A stretch of DNA of 64,000 nucleotides from a virus, in IMG/VR virus record IMGVR_UViG_3300031521_000001. One strand, 5' to 3'. The position numbers were made by a program, and so were the translations under genes. Below the pieces are notes generated by a model. The model had not been told where the DNA came from. It made no database searches and was given only the letters and a program-made list of their open reading frames with translations. This document shows positions 7,736 through 63,308 of the stretch, piece by piece. The stretch's first letter is position 1. Every line of letters begins with the position of its first letter.

Positions 7736-8605
7736 ATGCAAAGAGTATTAGTAACAGGAGGTTCTGGATTTGTAGGAACTAATCTTATTAAATATTTAAA
7801 TAAAAATTATAAAGGTATTGAAATATCATCATTAGACAATTACTTCACAGGTAAAGAAGAAAATCATGTAGATGATGTTACATATTACAATGGTAATACA
7901 TGGGATGCTCCTGAAATATTAAAAAATAAGAAATTTGATACAGTTTTTCATTTTGGAGAATACTCTAGAATTGTAAAATCATTTGATGATATTAAATATG
8001 TCGAAAAAACAATTTTATATGGCACACCAATAATAATGGAATTGTGTAGAGAATGGAATGCAAAATTAATATATTCTGCTTCATCTTCTAAATTTGGAAA
8101 TAATGGTGAAAATGAAAATTTAGCTCCTTATTCATGGATGAAAGCAAAGATTGTTGAACTTATAAAAAATTACAATAAATGGTATAATTTACAATATGAA
8201 ATTTGCTATTTTTTTAACGTGTATGGTGAAGGTCAAATAATGACAGGAGATTATGCTACTGTAATAGGCATATTTGAGCATCAATACTCAGAAGGTAACA
8301 AATGTACAGTTGTTGAGCCAGGTACTCAGAGCAGAGACTTTACCCACATTGAGGACATTGTTAGAGGTGTAGTATTATCATCTTTTACAAATATGAATCA
8401 TGAATGGTATTTACGTTCTGGAATAAATACTAGCATTATAGATGTTGCTAAAATGTTTGGAGAATTTGAATTTGTGTCTAAAAGAAGAGGAGAAAGATAT
8501 AATTCAGAAGAATTTGAAACTGATACAGAAAGAGAATTAAATTGGGTACCAGAACACAAATTAGATGATTGGATTAAATCAATAAAAAACAAAAAGAGAG
8601 ATTAA
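7736..8605 (+). CDS. NAD-dependent epimerase/dehydratase (extended short-chain dehydrogenase family; UDP-sugar epimerase or decarboxylase-like)
   Basis: N-terminal Rossmann fold VLVTGGSGFVGTNL; catalytic YxxxK (YSWMK). Confidence 0.85.
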   Translation: MQRVLVTGGSGFVGTNLIKYLNKNYKGIEISSLDNYFTGKEENHVDDVTYYNGNTWDAPEILKNKKFDTVFHFGEYSRIVKSFDDIKYVEKTILYGTPIIMELCREWNAKLIYSASSSKFGNNGENENLAPYSWMKAKIVELIKNYNKWYNLQYEICYFFNVYGEGQIMTGDYATVIGIFEHQYSEGNKCTVVEPGTQSRDFTHIEDIVRGVVLSSFTNMNHEWYLRSGINTSIIDVAKMFGEFEFVSKRRGERYNSEEFETDTERELNWVPEHKLDDWIKSIKNKKRD

Positions 8606-11862: not shown

Positions 11863-12173
11863 AATATATAAAAACATTTGAAAAATTAGATAGAAAAATA
11901 AAAAAAGGAGATTATGCTATAATCGATTTTAAAACAACTAATCCTGGAGTTACAGAATTTTTTCAAAATAATATTAGTAAAATTATCGAAGTAAGAGGAA
12001 TATGGATTAAATTTGGTTATAAATATGTACCAGAAGAAATCAAGGAATATTTTTATAAATCTAGAGTATATTATATATATCAAATAGAGTTAAACTTAGA
12101 AGATGTTTACTCTTATGCTATCTCAAAAGAAAAATTAGAATTAGAATTATCAACAAAAAAATTCAACATATGA
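11859..12173 (+). CDS. family A small protein (MKYIKTFE...GDYAI...KKFNI)
   Basis: array III. Confidence 0.75.
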   Translation: MKYIKTFEKLDRKIKKGDYAIIDFKTTNPGVTEFFQNNISKIIEVRGIWIKFGYKYVPEEIKEYFYKSRVYYIYQIELNLEDVYSYAISKEKLELELSTKKFNI

Positions 12174-12748
12174 AATATATAAAAACATTTGAATTATCAA
12201 CTTTTTATGATGAAAAAGATATATTTTGGTATATCCATAATATTAATTTACCTAAAATTAAAGAATTAGTATCTGAAATACCTAATATTAATCTTAATAT
12301 TAAAGATAGTACTGGTGAAACACCTTTGCTTCAGTCAGTTAGGTTTAGTTTATATAACGTGTTTAAATTTTTGATAGAATCAGGAGCAGATGTAAATTGT
12401 ACATGTACTAATGGAGTCACTCCATTGATGATAGCAGCAAGAAATAAAAAAGAAGAATTTGTTCAAGATTTAATAGATGCTCACGCAGATTTGAATATTA
12501 AAAATGATGACGGCGAAACTGCATTAATTATGATTTCTAGCTACACAGATAAAAAGGCTTTTAAAATAATTGAAAACTTAATTGAAAGTGGTGCAGATTG
12601 GAATATATCTGATAATTATAATAATACTTTTTTGATGCATTTACAACCTGCATATATGAAAAAAATAATAGAAAAATATCCAGATAAATATGAAGAATTT
12701 ATTAAAGAATATAATTTTAAAAATGATATAAAAAAATTCAATTTATGA
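12170..12748 (+). CDS. ankyrin-repeat protein in family A frame (MKYIKTFE...KKFNL)
   Basis: 3-4 ankyrin repeats (TGETPLLQSV..., NGVTPLMIAARNKKEEFVQDLIDAHADLN, DGETALIMIS...). Confidence 0.8.
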   Translation: MKYIKTFELSTFYDEKDIFWYIHNINLPKIKELVSEIPNINLNIKDSTGETPLLQSVRFSLYNVFKFLIESGADVNCTCTNGVTPLMIAARNKKEEFVQDLIDAHADLNIKNDDGETALIMISSYTDKKAFKIIENLIESGADWNISDNYNNTFLMHLQPAYMKKIIEKYPDKYEEFIKEYNFKNDIKKFNL

Positions 12749-13146: not shown

Positions 13147-13616
13147 AACACATTAAAACGTTTGAAAATGCATTCACTGACATATTTAAAAAAAGGAAGA
13201 AATTACCTCACGAAGTTATTAATTTTGGTGATGTATTAACTAAATTTATAGAGAAAAATATTGATATGGAATGGGATGTTTATTCAAATACATATGAAAG
13301 TAGTAATAAAAAATATTATGATGTTGTAAGAATTTTTATTGACCCACATGATATAGATGATGCTGCTGAAGTTTTGGAATTGCATTATAATTATGATAGA
13401 AATTCTATTTTATATTGTTACCATCCAATAATGAATTTTATGGAAGATATTAAAGACTATTTAGGAAATATTGTAAAGAATAGTTCTATTGAAGATGTTT
13501 CATCTGCTGGAGATAATAGATATTGGATACCACTAGATAAATTACCTGAAATAATAAATAAAATAAATAGCTCTGATTTTGATTATTATAAGTCGACAAA
13601 AAAATTTAACATATGA
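13143..13616 (+). CDS. family A protein with unrelated core (MKHIKTFE...TKKFNI)
   Basis: array III. Confidence 0.75.
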   Translation: MKHIKTFENAFTDIFKKRKKLPHEVINFGDVLTKFIEKNIDMEWDVYSNTYESSNKKYYDVVRIFIDPHDIDDAAEVLELHYNYDRNSILYCYHPIMNFMEDIKDYLGNIVKNSSIEDVSSAGDNRYWIPLDKLPEIINKINSSDFDYYKSTKKFNI

Positions 13617-13990
13617 AATATATAAAAAAATTTGAACGTAAAAAGAATGAATTTTATACAATTAAAAATGAATTAATTAATGCTGTATATCATGGTAATT
13701 ATTCTAAAACTAAAAAATTATTAGATTCTGGCTTTGATGTTAATAGTAATATAGATGGAAGAAATTCTGCATTATTATATGCTTCTTATAAAGGAGAATG
13801 GAATATTTTATTTCTAATATTAAAATATAATCCTGATTGGTACATAAAAGATATTTCAAAATATGATTTTATTGACTATATAAATGATCATATAGATGGA
13901 GATAAAGTAATAGAAAAAATAACAAAAAAATATCCTGTTAAATACAATGAGTATTTAATGATAAAAAAATCAGAAAAATTTAATTTATAA
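13613..13990 (+). CDS. ankyrin-repeat protein in family A frame (MKYIKKFE...SEKFNL)
   Basis: ankyrin repeats (LINAVYHGNYSKTKKLLDSGFDVNSNIDGRNSALLYAS...). Confidence 0.75.
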   Translation: MKYIKKFERKKNEFYTIKNELINAVYHGNYSKTKKLLDSGFDVNSNIDGRNSALLYASYKGEWNILFLILKYNPDWYIKDISKYDFIDYINDHIDGDKVIEKITKKYPVKYNEYLMIKKSEKFNL

Positions 13991-21093: not shown

Positions 21094-22737
21094 ATGTTAA
21101 AATATGATGATTATAATAAATTGAATGAGGCTTTCTTTCATCGTAGTAAAGATGAGTTAGAAAATCTCATACATTCATTTAAAAGCTTGATTATAAATCT
21201 AAAACAATCAATAGATAAAAAATATACATTAGATTTCTATAAAACTCAAATCAAAGAGGATTTAGAATCATATAAAATAAATATATTGAATAATTACAAT
21301 AAAAATACAATTAGTAAATTTAAAGATTTGTTTAAAGAATTTTTAAATAATGTAGATAATGACATAATTAAGCATATGAAATTAGGTAAATTTGCTAATG
21401 ATATATTAAAGATATATTCTATTAATAATTCTTTTGATATTAACATAAAGAATGTAAATAGTGTGTTTAAAGCTTATCTTGATAATGTTGATAGATATAT
21501 AGACAACACATATGATTTTTTCTACAATAAGATTGAGACTGATAAATCATATGAACCATATAATAAAATTGATATTAAAATAAATAAAGTCCCTATTGAT
21601 GAATATCAAAAAACAAAATACAAATATCAAATTGAGTTATTAAAATTACAAGAATGGATTACATACAACAATAAAAAAGTATTGATTATATTTGAAGGTA
21701 GGGATGCTGCAGGAAAAGGTTCAGCGATTAGAAATATCACAAGATTTCTAGATCCAAAGCATTTTAGAGTACAGACATTTGGTATACCTACAGAAGAAGA
21801 GAGTAATAATTGGTTTGATAGATATGAAAAATCTTTACCTAAAAATGGAGAAATTGTTTTTTTTGATAGATCTTGGTATACAAGAGGTTATGTTGAACCA
21901 GTGATGAAATATTCAACTGAAGATAAATATAATAAATTTATGAAAGAAGTCAATAACTTTGAAGATAAATTAATAGATGATGACATCATACTTATAAAAA
22001 TATGGTTCTCCATATCTCAAGATGTACAAAAAATGAGATTTGAATTAAGAAAATCTAATCCATTGAAATACTGGAAGTTTAGTAAGAATGATGAGCAAAC
22101 ATTAGACAAATGGGATGAATTTACTAAATATATAAATGAGATTTTCAAAAAAACAAATACTAAAGATTCTCCTTGGATAATAATAGATGCTGATGATGAA
22201 AATTATTCAAGATTAGAATCTTTCAATAGTATAATAAAATCAATAGAAAAAGATAAATCAAACATCAAAGAGGGTGGAATAAAAGTAATATTTGAAGATT
22301 TAGATGGACCATTAATTCCATATGATAAAAATTCAGATACCGACTATCATAAATTTTTTAATGATCCAGAAAAATGGAGTAAGACTGCTATGAGCAATTT
22401 AAACAATATTATTGAAAAGACAGAAGCAAAAGTAGTATTATCTTCTTCATATAGAGATGATAAACCATTAAGCGAAATAGAAAAGATGATGAAAACTGCT
22501 GGATTTAAATATAAAATATATGACGTTGTTCCAAATGACAAATCTAAAAAACGTGGATCTGATATAAAAGATTGGTTAAAGAATAATAAATCAGTTAGTA
22601 ATTTTATTATTATTGACGATAATAAGCATGACTTATATGAAGTATTTAGCAAAAAACACATTGTTAAAACTACTCATGAATTAGGAATAACAGATGATAT
22701 TAAAGATGAAGCTATTGATAAATTAAATACTAAATGA
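21094..22737 (+). CDS. ppk2: polyphosphate kinase 2 (PPK2) with an N-terminal extension and a C-terminal HAD-like phosphatase domain
   Basis: Walker A FEGRDAAGKGS and PPK2 motif FFDRSWY; C-terminal HAD motifs FEDLDGPL (I), VVLSSS (II), IIIDDNKHD (IV). Confidence 0.8.
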   Translation: MLKYDDYNKLNEAFFHRSKDELENLIHSFKSLIINLKQSIDKKYTLDFYKTQIKEDLESYKINILNNYNKNTISKFKDLFKEFLNNVDNDIIKHMKLGKFANDILKIYSINNSFDINIKNVNSVFKAYLDNVDRYIDNTYDFFYNKIETDKSYEPYNKIDIKINKVPIDEYQKTKYKYQIELLKLQEWITYNNKKVLIIFEGRDAAGKGSAIRNITRFLDPKHFRVQTFGIPTEEESNNWFDRYEKSLPKNGEIVFFDRSWYTRGYVEPVMKYSTEDKYNKFMKEVNNFEDKLIDDDIILIKIWFSISQDVQKMRFELRKSNPLKYWKFSKNDEQTLDKWDEFTKYINEIFKKTNTKDSPWIIIDADDENYSRLESFNSIIKSIEKDKSNIKEGGIKVIFEDLDGPLIPYDKNSDTDYHKFFNDPEKWSKTAMSNLNNIIEKTEAKVVLSSSYRDDKPLSEIEKMMKTAGFKYKIYDVVPNDKSKKRGSDIKDWLKNNKSVSNFIIIDDNKHDLYEVFSKKHIVKTTHELGITDDIKDEAIDKLNTK

Positions 22738-24726: not shown

Positions 24727-25082
24727 AAACATATCAACAATTTAATGAAATGAGCAATGTTGGATGTACTATATTTTTCAAAGTATATTTTAAATTTGAA
24801 AATGTGTATAAACAAATTGAGATATTAGATGAAAATAGAATAGATTATGATATATCTTATCATAATAAATTCATTAAAATAGATGCTTATGCTTATTCTA
24901 TAAGTGAGTATAATTTTCTTATATCAATTGAATTCAAAATAAATAAAAAATCACAAGAACTAATAAATCCAAATATGTCACTTGATAAAATTAGAAGTAT
25001 TGTAAAATCAGACAAAGGTTGGACGCCAACAAGTAAAGAAGAATTACCATACATTAATGATATAAATAAATTCAACTTATGA
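24723..25082 (+). CDS. family A variant, N-term MKTYQQFNE (closest to T4 MKTYQEFIAE), C-term INKFNL
   Basis: array IV. Confidence 0.75.
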   Translation: MKTYQQFNEMSNVGCTIFFKVYFKFENVYKQIEILDENRIDYDISYHNKFIKIDAYAYSISEYNFLISIEFKINKKSQELINPNMSLDKIRSIVKSDKGWTPTSKEELPYINDINKFNL

Positions 25083-25585
25083 AATATATAAAAAGATTTG
25101 AAAGTATAATAACAGAATTGAATTACTCAAGTAAAGGATTAACTTCTTTACCTGAGTTGCCTGATACATTAAAGAATTTGGGATGTCATCATAATAAATT
25201 AAGATATCTACCAGAATTACCAACTACATTAGAAGAATTGTTTTGTGGCGATAATGAGTTAAAAAAATTGCCAACTTTACCAAACACAATAACAAATTTA
25301 ATGATTCATCATAATGATTTGACAGAATTGCCAGATCTACCAGATTCATTGATAAATTTTTCATGTGGGCATAATAATTTAACTGAAATACCAAAATTAC
25401 CAAATAATTTAGTATATTTTTTATGTGATAATAATAATTTATCTGAATTACCAGAAATGCCAGAAACTGTAACTCAATTTAGTTGTAAGTATAATAATTT
25501 ACCATATGAAGATTTGAATGGATATTGGGATTGGTTTTATGATAGAAATCCAGAAAGAAAACAAGCAAAAAAATTCAACTTATGA
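25079..25585 (+). CDS. leucine-rich-repeat protein in family A frame (MKYIKRFE...AKKFNL)
   Basis: about 7 tandem LRRs of 20-22 aa (LPELPDTLKNLGCHHNKLRYLPELPTTLEELFCGDNELKKLPTLPNTITNL...). Confidence 0.8.
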   Translation: MKYIKRFESIITELNYSSKGLTSLPELPDTLKNLGCHHNKLRYLPELPTTLEELFCGDNELKKLPTLPNTITNLMIHHNDLTELPDLPDSLINFSCGHNNLTEIPKLPNNLVYFLCDNNNLSELPEMPETVTQFSCKYNNLPYEDLNGYWDWFYDRNPERKQAKKFNL

Positions 25586-26097
25586 GATATTTAAAAAAAT
25601 TTGAAAAATATAATGCATCTTTAGATTTAAATTATATTTTAGAAGATGATGTATATAGTGATTCAGATGCAATAAAATTATTAAAAAAAGTGAAATATGC
25701 TATTGACAATGATTGTGTTATTGATAATATTAATATACATTGGATGGAAAGAACTCCTTTAATTACATGCGCTGTTTTAGACTGTCATATAAAAACCCAG
25801 TCTAAATATAGAAATATATTTGAGCAAATAGCAAAAGAACTAATTAATTCAGGAGCTAATATAAATCATATAGATAAAGATAACAGAAGTGCTTTAATAT
25901 GGGCTACAGATAGAGGACATTTTGATGTAATGGAACTATTAATTGAAAATGGCGCAGATTGGAATATTATGGATGTATTCCATCATGAATTTCATGAATA
26001 TTTGAGTGATGAACATTTTGAAAAAATTATTCATAAATATCCAGAACAATATGAATTGTATAACATGAAAAACAACACGAACAAATTCAATTTATGA
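25582..26097 (+). CDS. ankyrin-repeat protein in family A frame
   Basis: ELINSGANINHIDKDNRSALIWATDRGHFDVMELLIENGADWN. Confidence 0.8.
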   Translation: MRYLKKFEKYNASLDLNYILEDDVYSDSDAIKLLKKVKYAIDNDCVIDNINIHWMERTPLITCAVLDCHIKTQSKYRNIFEQIAKELINSGANINHIDKDNRSALIWATDRGHFDVMELLIENGADWNIMDVFHHEFHEYLSDEHFEKIIHKYPEQYELYNMKNNTNKFNL

Positions 26098-26585
26098 AAC
26101 ATATAAAAACATATACTCAGAAAGAATTGGATGATAATTTGTTGAAATATTCAGCAAAACAGGCATCTTTGCAAAAAGTAAGAGAATTGATAACAGATGG
26201 AGCTAACGTTAATTGTTTTGATCGTATCAGATATAACACGCCATTAATTAACGCATCACAACAACTAAATTATAGTACAATTAAATTGTTAATAGAAAAT
26301 GGTGCTGATATAAATTTAGTAAATAAAAACAATAAAAATTGTATATTTTATATTGTTAATCAAAACACATATACTTATACTAAATATAAAAATAAAATTA
26401 ATAATATAATTGATTTATTAATTTCATCTGGAATAAATTTAAACAATAAAAATAAAAGTGATGTTGATATTTTTGATAATATTCAAGAATCAAATCCTTT
26501 TATTCTTCAATATATAATAGATAATTATCCAGAAGAATACAAAGAATATTTAATGAAAAAAACTGCAAACAAATTTAACTTATGA
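26094..26585 (+). CDS. ankyrin-repeat protein in family A frame
   Basis: LITDGANVNCFD...NTPLINASQQLNYSTIKLLIENGADINLVNKNN. Confidence 0.8.
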   Translation: MKHIKTYTQKELDDNLLKYSAKQASLQKVRELITDGANVNCFDRIRYNTPLINASQQLNYSTIKLLIENGADINLVNKNNKNCIFYIVNQNTYTYTKYKNKINNIIDLLISSGINLNNKNKSDVDIFDNIQESNPFILQYIIDNYPEEYKEYLMKKTANKFNL

Positions 26586-28290: not shown

Positions 28291-29013
28291 TTATTTCTGA
28301 AATGATGGTTTCAGCCACATTTTTGTGTGTTTAAAAATATAATCTCTTAATTCTGGAAATTCATTCAGCATCAAAATTGTTTTTAATGTATCATACTTAA
28401 AACACTTTGTAAGTTCATCTTGAATTCTTTCATTAGAAACTACTTTCATTTTTGATTCATAATCATAATTTTTGATAGCGATTTCAATATCATCAGTCAT
28501 TCTGAATCCTTTTGTGATACAAAAACGGACGCATCTCAAAATCCGTAGGCTGTCCTCATCAAATGTAAGTTCACATGGTCTTGGAGTTCTAAGAATTCCC
28601 ATTTTTAAATCTTTCACACCATCAAACAAGTCAATCAAAGTACCATTCTCATCAACAGCCATAGCATTTAATGTGAAATCACGTCTTATTAAATCATCTT
28701 CTAGTGTACCAAGTTCTAAAATTGGACGTCTTGTACCTTCATAATAGCCAATTTCCTTTCTTGCCATTACAAAATCTGCTGTCAATCCTTCATGCTTATG
28801 TCCTTTTGGAAATTTTGCTTTGATAGTAAAACATCTTGGTGTTGAATTGTATATAGTGTAACCATTTTTACGTAGCCATAACTCCATATCCATAAATCCA
28901 GATTCAACTGATTGATTCATATCATCTAATACAAAAGTAAAGTCAATGTCTTTACAATCAACTCCTAAAATACGGTCACGAACCGCTCCTCCCACTTCAT
29001 AAATTTTTGGCAT
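28291..29013 (-). CDS. nucleotidyltransferase, tRNA CCA-adding/poly(A) polymerase head domain (Pol-beta superfamily)
   Basis: motifs GGAVRDRILG...DIDF and RRDFTLNAM. Confidence 0.8.
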   Translation of the reverse strand: MPKIYEVGGAVRDRILGVDCKDIDFTFVLDDMNQSVESGFMDMELWLRKNGYTIYNSTPRCFTIKAKFPKGHKHEGLTADFVMARKEIGYYEGTRRPILELGTLEDDLIRRDFTLNAMAVDENGTLIDLFDGVKDLKMGILRTPRPCELTFDEDSLRILRCVRFCITKGFRMTDDIEIAIKNYDYESKMKVVSNERIQDELTKCFKYDTLKTILMLNEFPELRDYIFKHTKMWLKPSFQK

Positions 29014-30666: not shown

Positions 30667-31605
30667 TTAGAAAAAATTGGAAGCGTCAACATATTTGAAT
30701 CCACATCTTTTAGCGAATGTTTTATCACTTGTCAAATCTCCAACCATTGTACATTGTGATGAGTCAAGTTTATATTTTTCAATAAAATCTACACCTAATC
30801 CTACACCTGGTTTTCTACAATAACAAATTATTGGAGGTACTGAATGTCCACAATATTTATAATCAATATTAACTCCTAACATTTCATTTGTTTTTTCAAA
30901 ACAAGCTATTGCAGTTTCATGAGTTAATAAGCCTTTTGCTATACCGCTTTGATTTGAAACCCCTAGTAGTATATAACCTTGTTTCTGTAATTCTAAAAGT
31001 TTTTCTGTTCTACCAGGAATAATTTCTATATCATTCACATCAGTAGGGAAATGTCCTCCACTTTTAGTTACTCTTAAAGTACCGTCATAATCAAATAAAA
31101 TAGCTTTATTTGTATATTCTGATGGTTTACGTTTAAAATCAATTTTTTCTATATCATCAATTCCTTCTGATAGTTCTGGTGCTTCAAAATGTTTATTAAT
31201 TTTATAAAGTGCTGCAACAGGAAACATATGTGGATCATTAACTTTAGAATAATCACTTAAATTTGTAAACAACCTACCTTGAGTTTTTATCATTCTGGTA
31301 ACAGCATTGAACATACAATCTTCAATTTTTGTTGTGAAATAAAGACACAATACATAGTAGCCATATTTTTTTGCTAATGCAATAGCATCAGCCCTAGATA
31401 ACTTAGTAGAATATGTACCATCTAAGATAATATCTACTCCATCTATCATCAAGTTTTCAAGTTTTTTGTTGAGTGAACTTAATGTACCACCTTCAATATC
31501 TCTTGAAAGTAATGTACACTTATAATCAACCCATTTTTCAACAATACTTGATTTTCCTGCTGCTGGTAATCCACAAGTTATAACTAATTTTTTATCTTTT
31601 ATCAT
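30667..31605 (-). CDS. pnkp: polynucleotide 5'-kinase / 3'-phosphatase (T4 Pnkp-like)
   Basis: N-terminal P-loop ITCGLPAAGKSS; C-terminal HAD phosphatase motifs ILFDYDGTL (DxDGT), LLGVSNQSG, VGDLTSD. Confidence 0.85.
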   Translation of the reverse strand: MIKDKKLVITCGLPAAGKSSIVEKWVDYKCTLLSRDIEGGTLSSLNKKLENLMIDGVDIILDGTYSTKLSRADAIALAKKYGYYVLCLYFTTKIEDCMFNAVTRMIKTQGRLFTNLSDYSKVNDPHMFPVAALYKINKHFEAPELSEGIDDIEKIDFKRKPSEYTNKAILFDYDGTLRVTKSGGHFPTDVNDIEIIPGRTEKLLELQKQGYILLGVSNQSGIAKGLLTHETAIACFEKTNEMLGVNIDYKYCGHSVPPIICYCRKPGVGLGVDFIEKYKLDSSQCTMVGDLTSDKTFAKRCGFKYVDASNFF

Positions 31606-31948: not shown

Positions 31949-33160
31949 TTAATATCTATAATTATTCCATTTATCATTTTCATCTACAATTTTTCCATTG
32001 TTATCATAATAATAGTTATTAATAATTACATAAGTAGATAATCCTAATGATACTATAAGTATAATAATAAATAACCAAATTTGCTGTGTTCCACTTAAAT
32101 CTACATCAATATAATCAAAATCTTTAAATTGCTTTCTTTGCCAGTATTTTGGTATATTGCTTTCTGTCCAATTTGCTAATTCTTCTAGATTTAATTTATC
32201 TTTACCATTATAGTAACTTCTAAAATTAACTTCAAATGTTGGTTTATCACTCCATGAGAATGCATCTACCCACTGTAGTTTTTTTGATACTGAGTCCATA
32301 CCAAAACATAATATGAGTTCATTCTTATTACCACCTAACCAATAGCTTTGTTGTTCTTTTACTATTGAACGAGATTTATTATAATAAAACATTAAAAATA
32401 CTCTTATCTGATTTCTTGGACCATAATAGCCATTGATATATTGCCAAGATTTCAATTCTTTTAATGTTGGTTTATAACCTAAAAAAGGAGATTGCTCAGT
32501 TGTACTGCTTCCTGAAAACATACCACTATCACCATCATTATTTGAATATAATTTTGGATAATCATATAATCCATCTATTTTTGCATCCTCTTTAGAAATT
32601 TTTGAAAATCCAAATATAGAATATGAACTATTTATTTTATTCGTGTATGTATGTTCAGTTGTTATTGTTTTTGAACTATAAATATTATTGTCCCATTTGA
32701 TATTATACATATTACCATCATGATTATAAAAATCTCTGTTCATATCTACAAATATTTTTTGAGCATTCCAAGATTTCAACAATCTATAATATTCATTTTT
32801 TGAGATTTCTTGCTCTTTACCATTTGATAATACTTGTGACCAATGTTCAGGATGATCGTCTCTATGAGAACAATCATATGATTCACTGTGAGATTTACCA
32901 TTACCATCATCTACTGTTCTTGAACAAGTTTCTGTAATCCATTCATCCCAAAATTCATAATAATGTGCCTCAGTAACATAGTTACCAAAATACTCAGTTG
33001 CTTGTGTCTTACTATGAATCATTATAGTACTAATAAGTAAAGTTAGTAATATAGATGGTACAATAACAATGAGATATTCCCACCAAACAACTTTTGTTCT
33101 GAAAAAAATAAAAATTAAGATAGCAATTAAAATTGGAATGAAATAAATGAATGTTGTCAT
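31949..33160 (-). CDS. membrane protein with N- and C-terminal TM helices and a Cys-containing ectodomain
   Basis: 403-aa ORF; TM helices at both ends. Confidence 0.75.
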   Translation of the reverse strand: MTTFIYFIPILIAILIFIFFRTKVVWWEYLIVIVPSILLTLLISTIMIHSKTQATEYFGNYVTEAHYYEFWDEWITETCSRTVDDGNGKSHSESYDCSHRDDHPEHWSQVLSNGKEQEISKNEYYRLLKSWNAQKIFVDMNRDFYNHDGNMYNIKWDNNIYSSKTITTEHTYTNKINSSYSIFGFSKISKEDAKIDGLYDYPKLYSNNDGDSGMFSGSSTTEQSPFLGYKPTLKELKSWQYINGYYGPRNQIRVFLMFYYNKSRSIVKEQQSYWLGGNKNELILCFGMDSVSKKLQWVDAFSWSDKPTFEVNFRSYYNGKDKLNLEELANWTESNIPKYWQRKQFKDFDYIDVDLSGTQQIWLFIIILIVSLGLSTYVIINNYYYDNNGKIVDENDKWNNYRY

Positions 33161-33695: not shown

Positions 33696-34235
33696 TTATA
33701 GAGAAATCTCATTATCATCTACTCGAGTCTTCATTACTTCTTTTGTTACTGAGCAAGAAATTGGAACATATACAAATTGTTTAGAATTTTCTTTTGTTAC
33801 AAACCATTTTGCTGGTATTTGAGTTATATATGTATCATAATCACGTTTCATATCAATCATTCTTTTTTGCTGATTAGCGAAGTTTGTACGTTGAATTTCA
33901 ATACTATTCATTAAAGTTACATAGAGAGTATTATCAAATTTAGGATTAGATTCTTGAATCCATTTCATTAATGTACCATCACCTTTTGAATAACGTCCAC
34001 CAATCATATCAGTATAAATTTTATCAAAATTGTCTGCATATGCTGCAGGAACTTTTGCTTGATCTTTAAGAATTGTCCACATTTCATTATGAACTGCTTC
34101 AATGTTACCGTTCTGCGCTCCACAAGCTTTGTACTTTTGAATTGCATTGTTATTTACTGATACATAAGTAAAAAATACTGAAATTGCTAACAGTGCAACA
34201 ATTCCTACAACAGTGAGAATAATAATTTTTTTCAT
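33696..34235 (-). CDS. membrane-anchored protein (N-terminal TM/signal anchor)
   Basis: MKKIIILTVVGIVALLAISVFF. Confidence 0.7.
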   Translation of the reverse strand: MKKIIILTVVGIVALLAISVFFTYVSVNNNAIQKYKACGAQNGNIEAVHNEMWTILKDQAKVPAAYADNFDKIYTDMIGGRYSKGDGTLMKWIQESNPKFDNTLYVTLMNSIEIQRTNFANQQKRMIDMKRDYDTYITQIPAKWFVTKENSKQFVYVPISCSVTKEVMKTRVDDNEISL

Positions 34236-35112: not shown

Positions 35113-35742
35113 TTATACATCAAATCCATTTATATGAGTATTATTAATCAAGAAATCATCAATTTTTTTCATATTTTTAAGTGGATAAATTACAACATCA
35201 TATTCAACTCCAACCACGTTATTCTTTTTTCCTATTTTATATCTTTTATATTGTATTTCAAGTCCTGACATTTCTTTTTCTAAATCTTCTATTGAATAAT
35301 CAGTAGATAAAAAATGAACAACATATAATTTAGAATGATGAAAAGTATCAAATATTTTCTCAAACTTAAATAATACAATCATAACTATTAGCACAACTAA
35401 TAGAACGAATAGAGCTAATGAATAATGTTGATATCCTATGCACATACCTATTGCTGATGCCATCCAAATGATAGCGGCAGAAGTTATACCACGAACATTT
35501 CCTCCTTCTTTAAAAACAACCCCAGCACCAATGAAGCCAATTCCTGTTACAATATTTGAAGCTATTCTATCGCCACTAATCAAATTAACTGATAGTATAG
35601 TAAACAAGCATGAACTAACGCAAATCAATATCATTGTTTTGAAACCTGCAGGTTTACCATGAAATCCTCTTTCTATTCCTAATATAGATCCAGCAGCTAA
35701 TGATGCTAATATTTGTATTATATTTTCGTATTCTGGTAGCAT
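35113..35742 (-). CDS. mgtC: MgtC/SapB-family membrane protein
   Basis: ILGIERGFHGKPAGFKTMILI...GIGFIGAGVVF... matches the MgtC N-terminal signature (GxER..K.AGxRT); hydrophobic core plus a C-terminal soluble domain. Confidence 0.8.
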   Translation of the reverse strand: MLPEYENIIQILASLAAGSILGIERGFHGKPAGFKTMILICVSSCLFTILSVNLISGDRIASNIVTGIGFIGAGVVFKEGGNVRGITSAAIIWMASAIGMCIGYQHYSLALFVLLVVLIVMIVLFKFEKIFDTFHHSKLYVVHFLSTDYSIEDLEKEMSGLEIQYKRYKIGKKNNVVGVEYDVVIYPLKNMKKIDDFLINNTHINGFDV

Positions 35743-39718: not shown

Positions 39719-40612
39719 ATGAAAGAATTAGAATTAAAAAAATTAGTACATTCAACTATAGACAACACTATCAAGTATATTTTTTATACTGAAGATAAAT
39801 TGATAGTTGAATTTTCTTATATCAATAAGAATGATGGTAAAAATATTATTTGCTGTCCAGTTTCAACATTTTGTAATATAGGCTGCAAATTTTGTCACAC
39901 AGCAGAATATATTGGTAAAATTAAAAATAGAAACCTAACATCATTAGAGATTTCAAATGGAGTTGATTATATTTATAATGATTTGAAACTATCTGAAAAC
40001 CCAAAAACTTTATTGATAAGCTCCATGGGTATTGGTGAAATTGTAACCAATGTTGATGAAGTTGTAGAATCAATGATAAATATTCAAAATACTTATCTTA
40101 AAGATATATATGTTAGATTTGCATTTGCAACATCTTTACCTGAATCTCACAAAATCGAGTTTTTCAAATTGACAAATAAAATTGCAGAGAATAATTTACC
40201 TGTTAAGTTGCATCTATCATTACATTATACAACAGATGAATTAAGAAGTCAATGGATGCCAATGTCAATGAAAATTGAACCAACTATTGCAGCAGTTGAT
40301 TACTATAAAGCAACTACAGGAAATGATGTTGAAATACATTATGCACTAATAGAGAATGTTAATGATAAATCAGAAGATGCTATGAGATTAAGCAATCTTA
40401 TTAAAGGTAAAGGTTATAATGTTAAATTTTTATTCTATAACAAGAAAGATAATATAGACGCTGAACCATCTAACATTTCTAAAATTAGAAACTTTGTTGA
40501 TATATTTAGTCTTGTAGGAATAAAACATGAATACTATGTACCTCCTGGACTCACAATTGGAGCATCTTGTGGTCAACTATCTATAAATGAGTATATTAAA
40601 ATAAAAAAATAA
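39719..40612 (+). CDS. radical SAM enzyme of the RlmN/Cfr family (RNA adenine C2/C8 methyltransferase), N-terminally truncated relative to bacterial RlmN
   Basis: CNIGCKFCHTAE (Cx3Cx2C, compare RlmN CALECKFCSTAQ) and C-terminal GASCGQL (compare the RlmN Cys355 motif AACGQL). Confidence 0.75.
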   Translation: MKELELKKLVHSTIDNTIKYIFYTEDKLIVEFSYINKNDGKNIICCPVSTFCNIGCKFCHTAEYIGKIKNRNLTSLEISNGVDYIYNDLKLSENPKTLLISSMGIGEIVTNVDEVVESMINIQNTYLKDIYVRFAFATSLPESHKIEFFKLTNKIAENNLPVKLHLSLHYTTDELRSQWMPMSMKIEPTIAAVDYYKATTGNDVEIHYALIENVNDKSEDAMRLSNLIKGKGYNVKFLFYNKKDNIDAEPSNISKIRNFVDIFSLVGIKHEYYVPPGLTIGASCGQLSINEYIKIKK

Positions 40613-40630
40613 TAATTAAATAATAATTAA

Positions 40631-42091
40631 ATGAATAATAGAAACTTCATATTACATATAAAAGAAGATAAATACAAAAAATTATTAATTGATTATATTT
40701 TTAAATATCGTCAATTCGAAAACTTATATCTTATAATATTAAAAGAGAATAAGGATGATTTTAATTTTTTATCTAATTATAAAGTAATGAGAGCTATTCT
40801 TGCGGAAACTACTGGAGGTAAAGATAAAAATGAAGTTGATTTTATTAGATATAAATATAAAGAAAATGATAAAATGAATGAATTAATTATTTTATCAAAA
40901 AGTCTTAAAATACATAATATTTCAGATTTGATTAAAAGAGTAAAATCAAATTATAAATCTTTTTTCACTAAAATAAGAAATAAAGTTAAAGCCAACGTTC
41001 CATGTACAAAAAAGTTATCACTATTGACTAAATATTCCATTCTAGTTGATAAAATTGCATTTTCAATAAAGAAAAAGGATAAAATTGGAATCAACTTGAG
41101 TAATAAAATGTTTTATATTGATTTTAAGCATAAAATATTACCAGATAATATACAAAGTCTTAAAGTCGTTTACTCAAATAAAGAAGTTTATTTACATTTT
41201 AATTACTTGACTGAAGATATATTAAACACAAATAATTCATTAATAAAAGAAGCAGGAATAGATGTAGGTATTAATAATTTATTAGCTATATTTATTGATG
41301 ATAAAACATCTAAATCAATAATTGTTGACGGAAATATTTTTAAAACTTATAATTCAAAATTCAACAGGTTCTTGTCTAAACTTAATGAATCAATTTCTAA
41401 AGAAGTCATAGAATTTAAACTCAGTAATACTGGTACTAAATATGCAGTTAAGTGGACTAAAAGAGGAATAGAATTACGTAAATATAAGACATTTATTTAT
41501 GAAAAAAGAAATCGTTATTTTTATGATCAATTTCATAAAGTTAGTAAACGTGTGGTTGAATTATTGAAATTAAATTCTGTAAACAATCTAACAATTTCAT
41601 ACAATCTAGCTAGATTAAAATATAATGGTGATTGTAAATTAAATAAAAAAGTAAAACAAAATTTCATACAAATTCCTTTCATAAAACTACTAAATTACAT
41701 TCAATATAAAAGTAATGAAGTTGGAATTCAAGTAGATATAATTGATGAATCTTACACATCAAAGTGCTCATGTATTAGTGATAATGTGAATGATCCGTTA
41801 GATAAAGAACTAAATGGTGTTCGTTCTAAAAGAGATTTATTTACTGATAAACTAATAAATAAAACAATGAATGCTGATTTGAACGGTGCTGTCAATCATA
41901 TAAAAAAATCAAACAAAAATAATAATTTTTCTTGGTTGGAAAATTATATGTTTAAACTGTGTAATCCAGTTAAAATTAAATGCGACTACGATTTCTTTAA
42001 ATATTTAAAGAATAGTGTGCTCTGGCAAGGAATTTCATCAAAAGAAGTTCAAACGTCACTTCATGTACAAAATTGTACAAGTTTAAGTTGA
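40631..42091 (+). mobile_element. tnpB: IS200/IS605-family (IS1341-like) TnpB RNA-guided nuclease homolog; no tnpA
   Basis: RuvC-I GIDVGINNL, RuvC-II RVVELL, hallmark ESYTSKCSC, RuvC-III NADLNGAVNHI; second CxxC of the zinc finger is missing. Confidence 0.85.
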
Positions 42092-45440: not shown

Positions 45441-45848
45441 TTAGTCGAATGGTTCTATAATTTTCTTAATATATTTAACTGGTATATCAACTTCACAACA
45501 CAAATGATTTCTATTAGATGACATATCTTGGTTTGAGAAGTTATCATCATAAAAAGTTATACCATCTTTAATTAATTCTTGTGTATCAAGTGCAACTATA
45601 AATGAATCATCATAATACCTAAACATATCGCCAGTTGTATGTTTAATAGGATACGAAAAGAACAACATTCCTGTATCAACAATTGATTTGTGTTGTGGTT
45701 GGTTAATTTTTAGTCCTTCTTTTTCAATATTTTCTATTCTATCTTCAGTAGTTACATGGTATAAAACATCATATTTGCTAATATCATGCTGATTAAACTC
45801 TTTTTCATACGTTTCACCTGTAAAAGGTGATGTGAATTGTTTTTTCAT
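45441..45848 (-). CDS. hypothetical protein
   Basis: ORF. Confidence 0.65.
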   Translation of the reverse strand: MKKQFTSPFTGETYEKEFNQHDISKYDVLYHVTTEDRIENIEKEGLKINQPQHKSIVDTGMLFFSYPIKHTTGDMFRYYDDSFIVALDTQELIKDGITFYDDNFSNQDMSSNRNHLCCEVDIPVKYIKKIIEPFD

Positions 45849-47937: not shown

Positions 47938-48555
47938 TTAGTGATATAAATTATTTTGATGTATGTATTTATCAACATCTAATGGTACAAAGATACTAAT
48001 ATCTTCTGAATTGGCAACATTATTTCTTATTTTTGTTGATGATAATGATGATATTTTAAAATCTTTAAGAAAAACAGTATCTTTATTTATAATTACATTA
48101 TCACTAAGTAATTCAGATTTTTTATATTCAAAACATTTTTCATTTGTTTCATTATCAAAATCTCTTGGTAAAACTAAAAAAGGATAGTTTTTACATATAA
48201 CTTTAAAATTTTTCCATTTATCTATATCTAGCCAAATATCTAATCCCATTATCATATAATAATTAGTATCTGGATTAGAATTACTTAGTGAAGTTAATGC
48301 ATTAATTGTATATGATGGCAAAGGTAAATACTGTTCAACGGTATTGACACTAATATTATCATAGTCTTCTACAGCTAATTTACACATATTACATCTATCC
48401 AAATAATCAGCCAAGTCATATTTGAAAGGATTTTGTGGTGATACTACTAATTGTACTTCGTCAATATAATTTAGCTTATATATATACTCAGCTATCTTAA
48501 CGTGTGTATTATGGCAAGGATTGTAGCTACCAAAAAAAAGTGCAACATTTTTCAT
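47938..48555 (-). CDS. nicotinate/nicotinamide mononucleotide adenylyltransferase (NadD/NMNAT family)
   Basis: FGSYNPCHNTH (GxFxPxHxxH nucleotidyltransferase motif) and C-terminal SSTKIRNNV (ISSTxIR motif). Confidence 0.75.
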   Translation of the reverse strand: MKNVALFFGSYNPCHNTHVKIAEYIYKLNYIDEVQLVVSPQNPFKYDLADYLDRCNMCKLAVEDYDNISVNTVEQYLPLPSYTINALTSLSNSNPDTNYYMIMGLDIWLDIDKWKNFKVICKNYPFLVLPRDFDNETNEKCFEYKKSELLSDNVIINKDTVFLKDFKISSLSSTKIRNNVANSEDISIFVPLDVDKYIHQNNLYH

Positions 48556-54297: not shown

Positions 54298-54489
54298 AAT
54301 TTAAAATTTATTATTCAGCATAATAACCGCCGTGTCTACCTATTTTCAAATATAAATATCCTAAAATTCTTAAATATCTATAACCTTGTAATGTATATAC
54401 AATTCTAACATCTGTATAGTCAGCAAATATAAATTTAAATAAAGTATTGTTTTTTTTGAGTATGAGTTTTCATATTTTTAATTTTGTAG

Positions 54490-54578
54490 GAAGAATGACT
54501 GGATTCGAACCAGTAATAATTTATAATTTTTTACAAATGCTTTTTTGGCTACTAGTTTACCGATTAACTTACATTCTT
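54490..54578 (-). tRNA. tRNA-like gene, 89 nt: perfect 7-bp acceptor stem, D-arm AGTT-AATCGGTAA-AACT, T-arm ACTGG-TTCGAAT-CCAGT. The anticodon region is about 15-20 nt too long (intron or long variable arm); anticodon unresolved
   Basis: reverse complement of 54490-54578 folds into acceptor, D and T arms with canonical GG and T-Psi-C-like motifs. Confidence 0.55.
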
Positions 54579-62454: not shown

Positions 62455-62492
62455 TTTTGTAACTTTTTTATTTTTTTATCATATAATATAAC

Positions 62493-62981
62493 ATGGAAAT
62501 ATTAGATATTAAATTTAGAATGGAAGGCTTAGAAAAAAAACTATCGAATTTATATCCATATGAATTCGAGATTGATGGCGTATCTGTGGCTTCATATGAA
62601 GGCTTTATACAGTCATTAAGAACTCCAGACATACAAATTAAAGAGAGTATATGGAAACTATCAGGGTTTGAAGCATGGTCAGCTGGTCAATGTTTAGATT
62701 GGATAGATACTCAAGAATTATATTGGATATCTACACCAATCAATAGACAATCTGAAGAATATGATGAACTAATAAAACGATCATATGATTGTTTATTTGA
62801 ACAAAATGAATCTTTCAGAAACAGTTTAAAAGAATCAATACCTTATAAATTAGATCACACTATTGGTAAATCTGGCAAAACTAACACATTAATGACAAAA
62901 AGTGAATTCTTAATCCAATTAAATAGATTAAGATCCAAATTGACAGAAAAGAAGTTTTTTAATTTACTTGACTTGTTCTGA
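62493..62981 (+). CDS. NADAR-domain protein (YbiA/DUF1768 family; NAD and ADP-ribose processing)
   Basis: YPYEFEIDGVSVASYEGFIQSLRT matches the NADAR core F..FEIDG..Y.S.EH.FQA.K. Confidence 0.6.
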   Translation: MEILDIKFRMEGLEKKLSNLYPYEFEIDGVSVASYEGFIQSLRTPDIQIKESIWKLSGFEAWSAGQCLDWIDTQELYWISTPINRQSEEYDELIKRSYDCLFEQNESFRNSLKESIPYKLDHTIGKSGKTNTLMTKSEFLIQLNRLRSKLTEKKFFNLLDLF

Positions 62982-63308
62982 TTTATAATAATTTCTAAAT
63001 CTCATCAATGTTTCACAAACCCAAGATTCAACTTCTTTTGCTTTCCATCCATGTTTAAGCTGAAGTATTGCTAATTTAAGTACTCCTCTTTCATATCTGG
63101 TTGATGCACCTCCTTTGTACATATAGATAAGACTTGCTACTTTCTCTGCTTCTGATACGTTTGTGCCATCACGTACAATAACTTTTCTACAGTTAACTGA
63201 CTTATTTGTATCTGCTTCGGCTTTAACATTACTTGAATGTCTATCTCTTAAAATTTCACAAGAAATAACCTTTAAATTCTTATCATAATAAACTGCTGTG
63301 TAATCCAT
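62964..63308 (-). CDS. hypothetical protein
   Basis: ORF convergent with and overlapping the NADAR gene end by 18 nt. Confidence 0.6.
   Translation of the reverse strand: MDYTAVYYDKNLKVISCEILRDRHSSNVKAEADTNKSVNCRKVIVRDGTNVSEAEKVASLIYMYKGGASTRYERGVLKLAILQLKHGWKAKEVESWVCETLMRFRNYYKSEQVK

Follow-up and report, generated by a model that had tools for sequence, protein, structure and literature searches.

An AdfN-like, NADAR-fold gene of the T4 gp30.3 family in an AT-rich environmental phage

The closest known counterpart of the gene considered here is found in phage T4. Its gene 30.3, renamed AdfN ("anti-DarT factor NADAR") by Johannesman et al. (PMC11825919), encodes a protein that strips ADP-ribose (ADPr) from DarT1-modified DNA in vitro, and which is required, and also enough, for T-even resistance to DarTG1, with no effect against DarTG2 (PMC11825919). 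The T4 AdfN substitutions E36A and K43A allow partial rescue only (PMC11825919). Full activity of T4 AdfN needs a T-even phage factor. With T4 gp30.3, guanosine-ADPr is hydrolysed in both DNA and RNA while thymidine-ADPr stays intact (PMC11125620, PMC11833690). For every NADAR tested, T4 gp30.3 included, guanine-ADPr is a substrate and thymidine-ADPr is not (PMC11125620, PMC11543638). DarT2, which modifies thymidine, is reversed by the DarG macrodomain, while NADARs reverse the guanine modification introduced by DarT1 (PMC11543638, PMC11125620, PMC11825919). Here we examined a gene of this family at positions 62,493 to 62,981 of a 64,000-nucleotide stretch of viral DNA (IMG/VR record IMGVR_UViG_3300031521_000001; the whole stretch is hereafter called the window), previously annotated by a model from the letters and their open reading frames (ORFs; hereafter the sequence-only reading) as encoding a NADAR-domain protein directed against host ADP-ribosylating toxins.

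The gene encodes a protein of 162 residues, called in identical form on 16 public contigs, five of which measure 0.2-1 Mb. Comparison with an orthologue of 85% identity, carried by a contig of 222 kb (L002), gave a ratio of non-synonymous to synonymous substitution rates (dN/dS) of ~0.20, there being 27 differences of each kind over 93 synonymous and 393 non-synonymous sites. From hmmscan searches against Pfam, the protein was assigned to PF08010 (Phage_30_3, "Bacteriophage protein GP30.3") with 100.3 bits (E = 1e-28; gathering cutoff 36 bits), residues 16-148 spanning profile positions 6-138 of 138. PHROG 652 was matched at E = 1.1e-28, and T4 gp30.3 (NP_049816) aligned over its full length at 32% identity (BLASTP, E = 1e-23). 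Using tblastn, homologues sharing 28-44% identity were recovered in 1,499 phage records, nearly all of them T4-like (Straboviridae). The gp30.3 family as a whole comprises 1,232 cluster representatives (50% identity) at E <= 1e-3. The ORF is a real gene under purifying selection, and its family match lies far beyond chance. An antisense ORF (62468..62632, - strand) was considered spurious because it overlaps this conserved sense frame. Many gp30.3-family representatives (e.g. P0246, P0250, P0256, P0330, P0340) were also observed to be multidomain fusions of 250-560 aa, with the NADAR domain placed at either the C or the N terminus.

Membership of the NADAR superfamily, as proposed by the sequence-only reading, was borne out by way of this gp30.3/AdfN branch, supported by PF08010, the predicted fold and profile-profile alignment. 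The Pfam NADAR/YbiA-like family, PF08719, was not itself matched: hmmscan reporting up to E 10 returned PF08010 only, NCBIfam returned no match for the 162-aa ORF, and all of the 120 matches listed from a profile search of 5.8 billion proteins carried PF08010 only, with PF08719 on none. Some YbiA homologues bear both precomputed labels. Alignment by hhalign to a 43-member YbiA-family alignment extended over 114 columns (E = 8.7e-5, probability 60%), pairing L-S-N-L with F-S-N-F, E36 with YbiA E48 and R43 with YbiA K55; the latter two YbiA residues correspond to E43 and K50 of PnNADAR in a phmmer alignment. The segment YPYEFEIDGVSVASYEGFIQSLRT (residues 21-44), which the sequence-only reading had quoted as matching the YbiA/NADAR core, falls on the YbiA core motif (SNF...SEHYFQAQK) in this profile-profile alignment. 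The HHpred comparison to PF08719 that it had suggested, approximated here by hhalign, held in part, yielding a moderate signal and no direct hmmscan match. Judged from sequence, the relation to PF08719 is one of superfamily level only.

Searches of the PDB by sequence, and also with a 27-sequence profile, found no match for the 162-aa ORF, and a fold search was therefore needed. A structure was predicted for the protein, with an alignment of 120 homologues, giving a model with a mean predicted local distance difference test (pLDDT) score of 94.3 and a predicted template-modelling score (pTM) of 0.88, in which values below 70 are confined to the last ~11 residues. When the model was compared with the PDB using Foldseek, the best matches were YbiA (2b3w), the Phytophthora NADAR-ADPr complex (8bau) and the G. 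lovleyi NADAR (8bat), followed by noise. Against BFVD, the best matches were proteins of Acinetobacter phage Henu6 (template-modelling score, TM, 0.88) and Tenacibaculum phage pT24 (TM 0.85, root-mean-square deviation 1.0), with dozens of annotated NADAR-domain proteins of giant viruses and phages further down. The link to NADAR thus rests on fold, profile-profile comparison and the gp30.3 literature, and is settled by the fold comparison. The model depicts a bare single domain with no RNA-binding extension. Its C-terminal helix corresponds to one that is required for full T4 AdfN activity, and whose loss in RB69 AdfN lowers activity (PMC11825919).

Residue conservation was counted in a 121-sequence subclade, comprising the window protein and 120 homologues, and among 50%-identity representatives of the wider family. 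The S18-N19 motif was present in 120/121 subclade sequences and in 142-144 of 156 family representatives. E36, the counterpart of T4 AdfN E36, PnNADAR E43 and E. coli C7 NADAR E88, for which a distal-ribose-coordinating catalytic role is described (PMC11543638, PMC11825919), was invariant in the subclade (121/121) and retained by 145/153 wider-family representatives. Position 43 is strictly basic, with Arg in 65 and Lys in 56 subclade sequences, and Lys in 136 and Arg in 10 of the wider family. A second catalytic position lies on the last beta-strand, where the YbiA family has Glu, DarT1-linked NADARs have Asp and phage NADARs of gp30.3 type have His (PMC11125620, PMC11543638); the window protein has H122 there, again invariant in the subclade (121/121) and found in 148/150 of the wider family. 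The sequence-only reading had named absence of the catalytic Glu/Asp of the NADAR fold as the observation that would count against it; E36 is in fact invariant, and the last-strand Glu/Asp is replaced by H122, the residue that defines the enzymatically active gp30.3 clade.

Comparison with characterised systems places the window protein closest to T4 gp30.3/AdfN, with which it shares PF08010, a bare domain of ~150-160 aa, E36, a basic residue 43, the last-strand His and an intact C-terminal helix, as well as the setting, a large phage of myovirus type in which the gene stands alone and next to no toxin gene. Unlike T4 AdfN, it has Arg rather than Lys at position 43 and carries an additional conserved 11-residue tail, EKKFFNLLDLF. 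Also, whereas T4 30.3 lies in the lig-30.x cluster, the window gene is a lone opposite-strand gene in a jumbo-phage accessory region of 24% GC; the host is probably not an enterobacterium. NADARs associated with DarG1/DarT1 (the BC4488 subfamily, including G. lovleyi 8BAT and E. coli C7) possess Asp on the last strand, an N-terminal extension and a toxin-antitoxin operon, in contrast to the last-strand His, lack of extension, lack of an adjacent DarT1 and phage-borne orphan status seen here. With respect to E. coli YbiA and the Phytophthora NADAR (PF08719; 2B3W, 8BAU), the window protein has His in place of the last-strand Glu and lacks the D-x-x-W-G-x-G segment, and its gene shows no link to riboflavin metabolism or the LexA operon. 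Further phage-encoded orphan NADARs, AdfN-Bas32 and AdfN-Bas60, likewise counter DarTG1 and not DarTG2, but these were independently acquired, belong to other NADAR clades and need no phage-specific cofactor (PMC11825919); the window protein falls in the gp30.3 clade.

Starting from the family membership, fold, residue conservation, purifying selection and stand-alone phage context established above, we estimate a probability of roughly 70% that the gene encodes a stand-alone AdfN-like NADAR-fold ADP-ribosylglycohydrolase removing ADP-ribose from guanine on phage nucleic acid, its enzymatic activity, guanine specificity and counter-defence role being proposed by analogy with the T4 prototype and other NADARs. 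Under such a mechanism, a DarT1-type or other guanine-specific ADP-ribosyltransferase (ART) would modify phage single-stranded DNA (ssDNA), linking C1'' of ADP-ribose to the exocyclic N2 of guanine. The enzyme would bind the ADP-ribose on guanine N2 in nucleic acid, with E36 contacting the distal ribose, R43 the diphosphate and H122 filling the catalytic-centre position taken by Glu/Asp in other NADARs, and would then hydrolyse the N-glycosidic bond to release free ADP-ribose and restore the base. Replication and transcription of the phage genome could in this way continue in a host equipped with a guanine-ADP-ribosylating defence. The sequence-only reading was right that NADAR proteins remove ADP-ribose from guanine in DNA, as the T4 prototype does (PMC11825919, PMC11125620), and wrong in naming DarT2-type toxins as the target, since thymidine-ADPr is not a substrate for NADARs, T4 AdfN among them, and they have no effect on DarTG2.

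Several points weigh against this assignment. The window protein shares only 32% identity with T4 AdfN, from which we infer its activity, and since T4 AdfN needs a T-even factor, function may depend on context. The host is assigned only tentatively, as a possible member of the Bacteroidota. The Arg at the phosphate-binding Lys position might be of consequence, as the K95R mutant of C7 NADAR kept its activity in vitro and lost rescue of DarT1 toxicity in vivo (Schuller et al., PMC11543638). As position 43 is strictly basic and C7 K95R is active in vitro, though unable to rescue, R43 may be a natural variant rather than a disqualifier; natural K/R alternation at this position could help explain the in vivo loss seen in DarG1-type NADAR K95R mutants. 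There is also a one-residue register ambiguity on the last strand, where hhalign sets H122 opposite YbiA H126 and the variable D121 opposite E125, although conservation points to H122 rather than D121 as the functional residue. Finally, the gp30.3 family lacks the YbiA D-x-x-W-G-x-G segment, the hhalign alignment ending at residue 124, and the binding pocket therefore differs in detail.

Other roles can be envisaged for a NADAR-fold enzyme in this setting. It might act on soluble ADP-ribose derivatives or by-products of nicotinamide adenine dinucleotide (NAD), such as immune signals or the ADPr>p/ADPr-1''P generated by Tpt1/KptA-type RNA repair, and so serve RNA repair or signal quenching. In the view of Iyer et al., soluble ADPr derivatives or by-products of RNA repair are what most phage NADAR and Macro domains act on (PMC9503650). 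RNA-repair and tRNA genes abound in the window (polynucleotide kinase/phosphatase, PPK2 with HAD_SAK_2, HD and tRNA nucleotidyltransferase; Table 1), which also contains an ORF with a weak KptA/Tpt1-like ART domain and is followed by an RNA ligase just past its end in identical contigs. We nevertheless regard this role as unlikely, if worth keeping in mind: T4 AdfN, the sole characterised member of the exact family, acts on DNA-guanine-ADPr as counter-defence (PMC11825919), NADARs are inactive on phosphate-end ADPr-RNA, and the NADAR gene is separated from the RNA-repair genes by 17-35 kb and is transcribed by itself from the other strand. A rather low probability is likewise given to reversal of ADP-ribosylation on RNA bases or cytidine, introduced by a host RNA-targeting ART, in place of DarT1 DNA damage. 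Guanosine-ADPr is removed from RNA by NADARs including that of phage T4, but the T4 enzyme is weaker on RNA than E. coli C7 NADAR (PMC11833690). Some NADARs remove cytidine-ADPr, as described in the abstract of PMC12945103 with SCO5665, a sponge NADAR and YbiA-type proteins as the examples; no report for gp30.3-type proteins was found there. The bare 162-aa domain, with no RNA-binding extension, also argues against an RNA substrate.

The proximity of T4 30.3 to alt, a few genes away, the early expression of T4-like NADARs along with ARTs noted by Iyer et al. (PMC9503650) and the presence of a weak KptA-like ART-fold ORF in the window raise the idea of a housekeeping partner for a phage-encoded ART, limiting self-damage or recycling modifications rather than countering defence. 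Such a role is very improbable here, since Pfam scanning of the 56 window ORFs of at least 120 aa found no ART of Alt/Mod or DarT type, the weak KptA-like ART-fold ORF being a sub-threshold match 17 kb away, and since T4 genetics show a direct anti-DarTG1 role. We attach still less weight to a YbiA-like N-glycosidase of riboflavin-pathway intermediates, for which the YbiA-family Glu and D-x-x-W-G-x-G motif are absent, PF08719 is unmatched and the window showed no riboflavin genes, or to a catalytically weakened ADP-ribose binder. With regard to the latter, E36 and H122 do not vary and the gene is under purifying selection, an argument that catalysis is retained. Arg and Lys alternate freely at position 43 within the clade.

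The C-terminal tail that distinguishes the window protein from T4 AdfN is conserved within the subclade (F155 and L158 at >=90%) and absent from most other gp30.3-family representatives, with a consensus of [KR]-F-[FY]-N-L-x-x-L-F-COOH; a few distant family members end in -(E/S/T)LF. Its low model confidence is as for a short linear motif. We take the tail to resemble the hydrophobic/acidic C-terminal clamp-binding peptides of T4/RB69 replication proteins and the bacterial QL[SD]LF motif. This disordered stretch might serve as a short motif for docking, for instance onto the clamp of the replisome, and tether NADAR where ssDNA meets DarT1-type enzymes, and if true this would offer a physical explanation for the phage-factor need of T4 AdfN. 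We consider such docking improbable at present, the evidence speaking neither for nor against it; none of the other window ORFs shares the tail motif, as sought in a test for hub binding.

Within a long series of small genes on the - strand, the NADAR gene alone is on the + strand; it overlaps a convergent ORF (62964..63308) by 18 nt at its 3' end, and on orthologous contigs it is again a lone + strand gene with differing neighbours. No ART domain was found next to it among the window neighbours or on orthologous contigs, and DarT1 is not adjacent. Approximately 33 nt upstream of the ATG are near-identical between the window and the 222-kb contig, whereas the flanking genes do not align. A promoter scan around the NADAR gene did not exceed shuffled expectation and found no terminator, and the window showed no enrichment of the conserved upstream motif CATATAATATA (27 matches, compared with 19 +/- 5). 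Because the scan was not above chance, a function for the upstream stretch can only be inferred: it is possibly the promoter of the lone + strand gene, consistent with a self-contained expression unit. A mobile cassette bounded by flanking repeats was rejected, only short, chance-level repeats being present. Also discarded was a bacterial toxin-antitoxin context for a homologue labelled "Trichloromonas sp.", whose contig is phage-like and has no DarT.

Table 1. Features of the 64,000-nucleotide window, beginning with the NADAR gene and its parts.
Feature	Position	Strand	Details
Coding sequence, 162 aa + TGA stop	62493..62981	+	ATG start; gp30.3/AdfN-family NADAR-fold protein
Upstream stretch conserved with the L002 locus	62460..62492	+	TATAAT at 62482-62487; no Shine-Dalgarno
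Codons S18-N19, "SN(F/L)" motif shared with YbiA/NADAR	62544..62549	+	Aligned by hhalign to YbiA S30-N31
Codon E36 (GAA), equivalent of distal-ribose-coordinating catalytic Glu	62598..62600	+	Aligned to T4 E36, YbiA E48
Codon R43 (AGA), phosphate-coordinating Lys position	62619..62621	+	T4 K43, PnNADAR K50, C7 K95
Codon H122 (CAC), last-strand His	62856..62858	+	Aligned to T4 H123
C-terminal helix, residues 136-151	62898..62945	+	Intact in model; alignment reaches last residue of T4 gp30.3
Subclade-specific tail EKKFFNLLDLF, residues 152-162	62946..62978	+	pLDDT 63-68; absent from T4 AdfN
Microbial-type PARG catalytic domain (macrodomain fold)	6020..6823	+	PF10021 E = 1.7e-19; intact GGG-x7-QEE signature GGGVAKGSKAQEE
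HD-domain protein	6826..7578		Directly after PARG gene
Nucleotide-sugar epimerase	7736..8605		After HD gene
Four ankyrin-repeat proteins	12170..12748, 13613..13990, 25582..26097, 26094..26585	+	
PPK2 fused to HAD_SAK_2	21094..22737	+	"Swiss Army Knife" RNA-repair domain
Leucine-rich-repeat protein	25079..25585	+	
tRNA nucleotidyltransferase	28291..29013	-	CCA-adding type
Polynucleotide kinase/3'-phosphatase	30667..31605	-	
403-aa protein, PHROG 2087 (unknown function)	31949..33160	-	Lak megaphages of Prevotella and Tenacibaculum phages, 36-39% identity
Virion structural protein	33696..34235	-	PHROG 1383
MgtC-family membrane protein	35113..35742	-	E = 5e-35
Radical-SAM protein	39719..40612		Adjoins TnpB
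TnpB / IS605 OrfB-type transposase-associated nuclease	40631..42091	+	Cas12f-like TNB domain
135-aa ORF, weak KptA/Tpt1 ART-fold half	45441..45848	-	PF01885 E = 0.0014 (sub-cutoff); PHROG 5470 E = 1.2e-4
Cytidylyltransferase-like protein	47938..48555	-	
tRNA-Phe, anticodon AAA, 90 nt (unusually long)	54489..54578	-	Single ARAGORN call; may be spurious, intron-containing or atypical

The PARG-like macrodomain that the sequence-only reading had placed at 6020 was confirmed, both by its PF10021 match (E = 1.7e-19) and by its signature GGGVAKGSKAQEE. The gene lies 56 kb from the NADAR gene and is not linked to it. Macro and NADAR domains are often found together in large phages and co-occur in DNA-virus genomes above chance (PMC9503650). 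The linkages cleaved by PARG-type macrodomains are different ones, among them 2'-OH RNA-ADPr made by RhsP2 (PMC11833690). The accompanying suggestion, that the virus holds two mechanistically distinct answers (NADAR and PARG) to host ADP-ribosylating defences, is plausible. None of the PADLOC defence models matched the 162-aa ORF, T4 AdfN or the PARG-like ORF.

Elsewhere in the window, which has a G+C content of 21-26%, small genes are densely packed with many 4-nt start/stop overlaps. The 135-aa ORF lacks an N-terminal RNA-binding domain and may represent a minimal ART of this phage that uses NAD. The RNA ligase beyond the window end, seen in contigs with the identical NADAR (L010), is split by a GIY-YIG endonuclease gene. 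An MgtC protein is unusual in a phage, and the cytidylyltransferase-like protein could be a nicotinamide or nicotinate mononucleotide (NMN/NaMN) adenylyltransferase of NAD salvage. The ankyrin set, also unusual for phages, recalls the "ankyphages" of symbionts or giant viruses; an origin from a giant eukaryotic virus was rejected in view of the tight packing with 4-nt overlaps, the PHROG matches, and best matches to Lak and Tenacibaculum phages. As the 403-aa ORF, beside which a virion structural gene lies, is closest to Lak and Tenacibaculum phages, the window is an accessory region of a jumbo phage whose host is possibly a member of the Bacteroidota, a host assignment drawn from few genes.

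Taken as a whole, the ORF is a moderately divergent addition, from an uncultured jumbo phage, to a known family, and an anti-defence gene of an ordinary kind whose prototype has been characterised genetically and biochemically; its peculiarities are R43, the conserved 11-residue C-terminal tail and the inverted lone-gene arrangement. The significance of the finding is twofold and, since both points match patterns known for large phages, what it offers is material for annotation and comparison, not new concepts. It extends the experimentally validated AdfN counter-defence family, known from T-even coliphages, to an environmental jumbo phage of AT-rich DNA that possibly infects Bacteroidota, and NADAR and PARG together would cover both N-glycosidic (base) and O-glycosidic (ribose or protein) ADP-ribose linkages.
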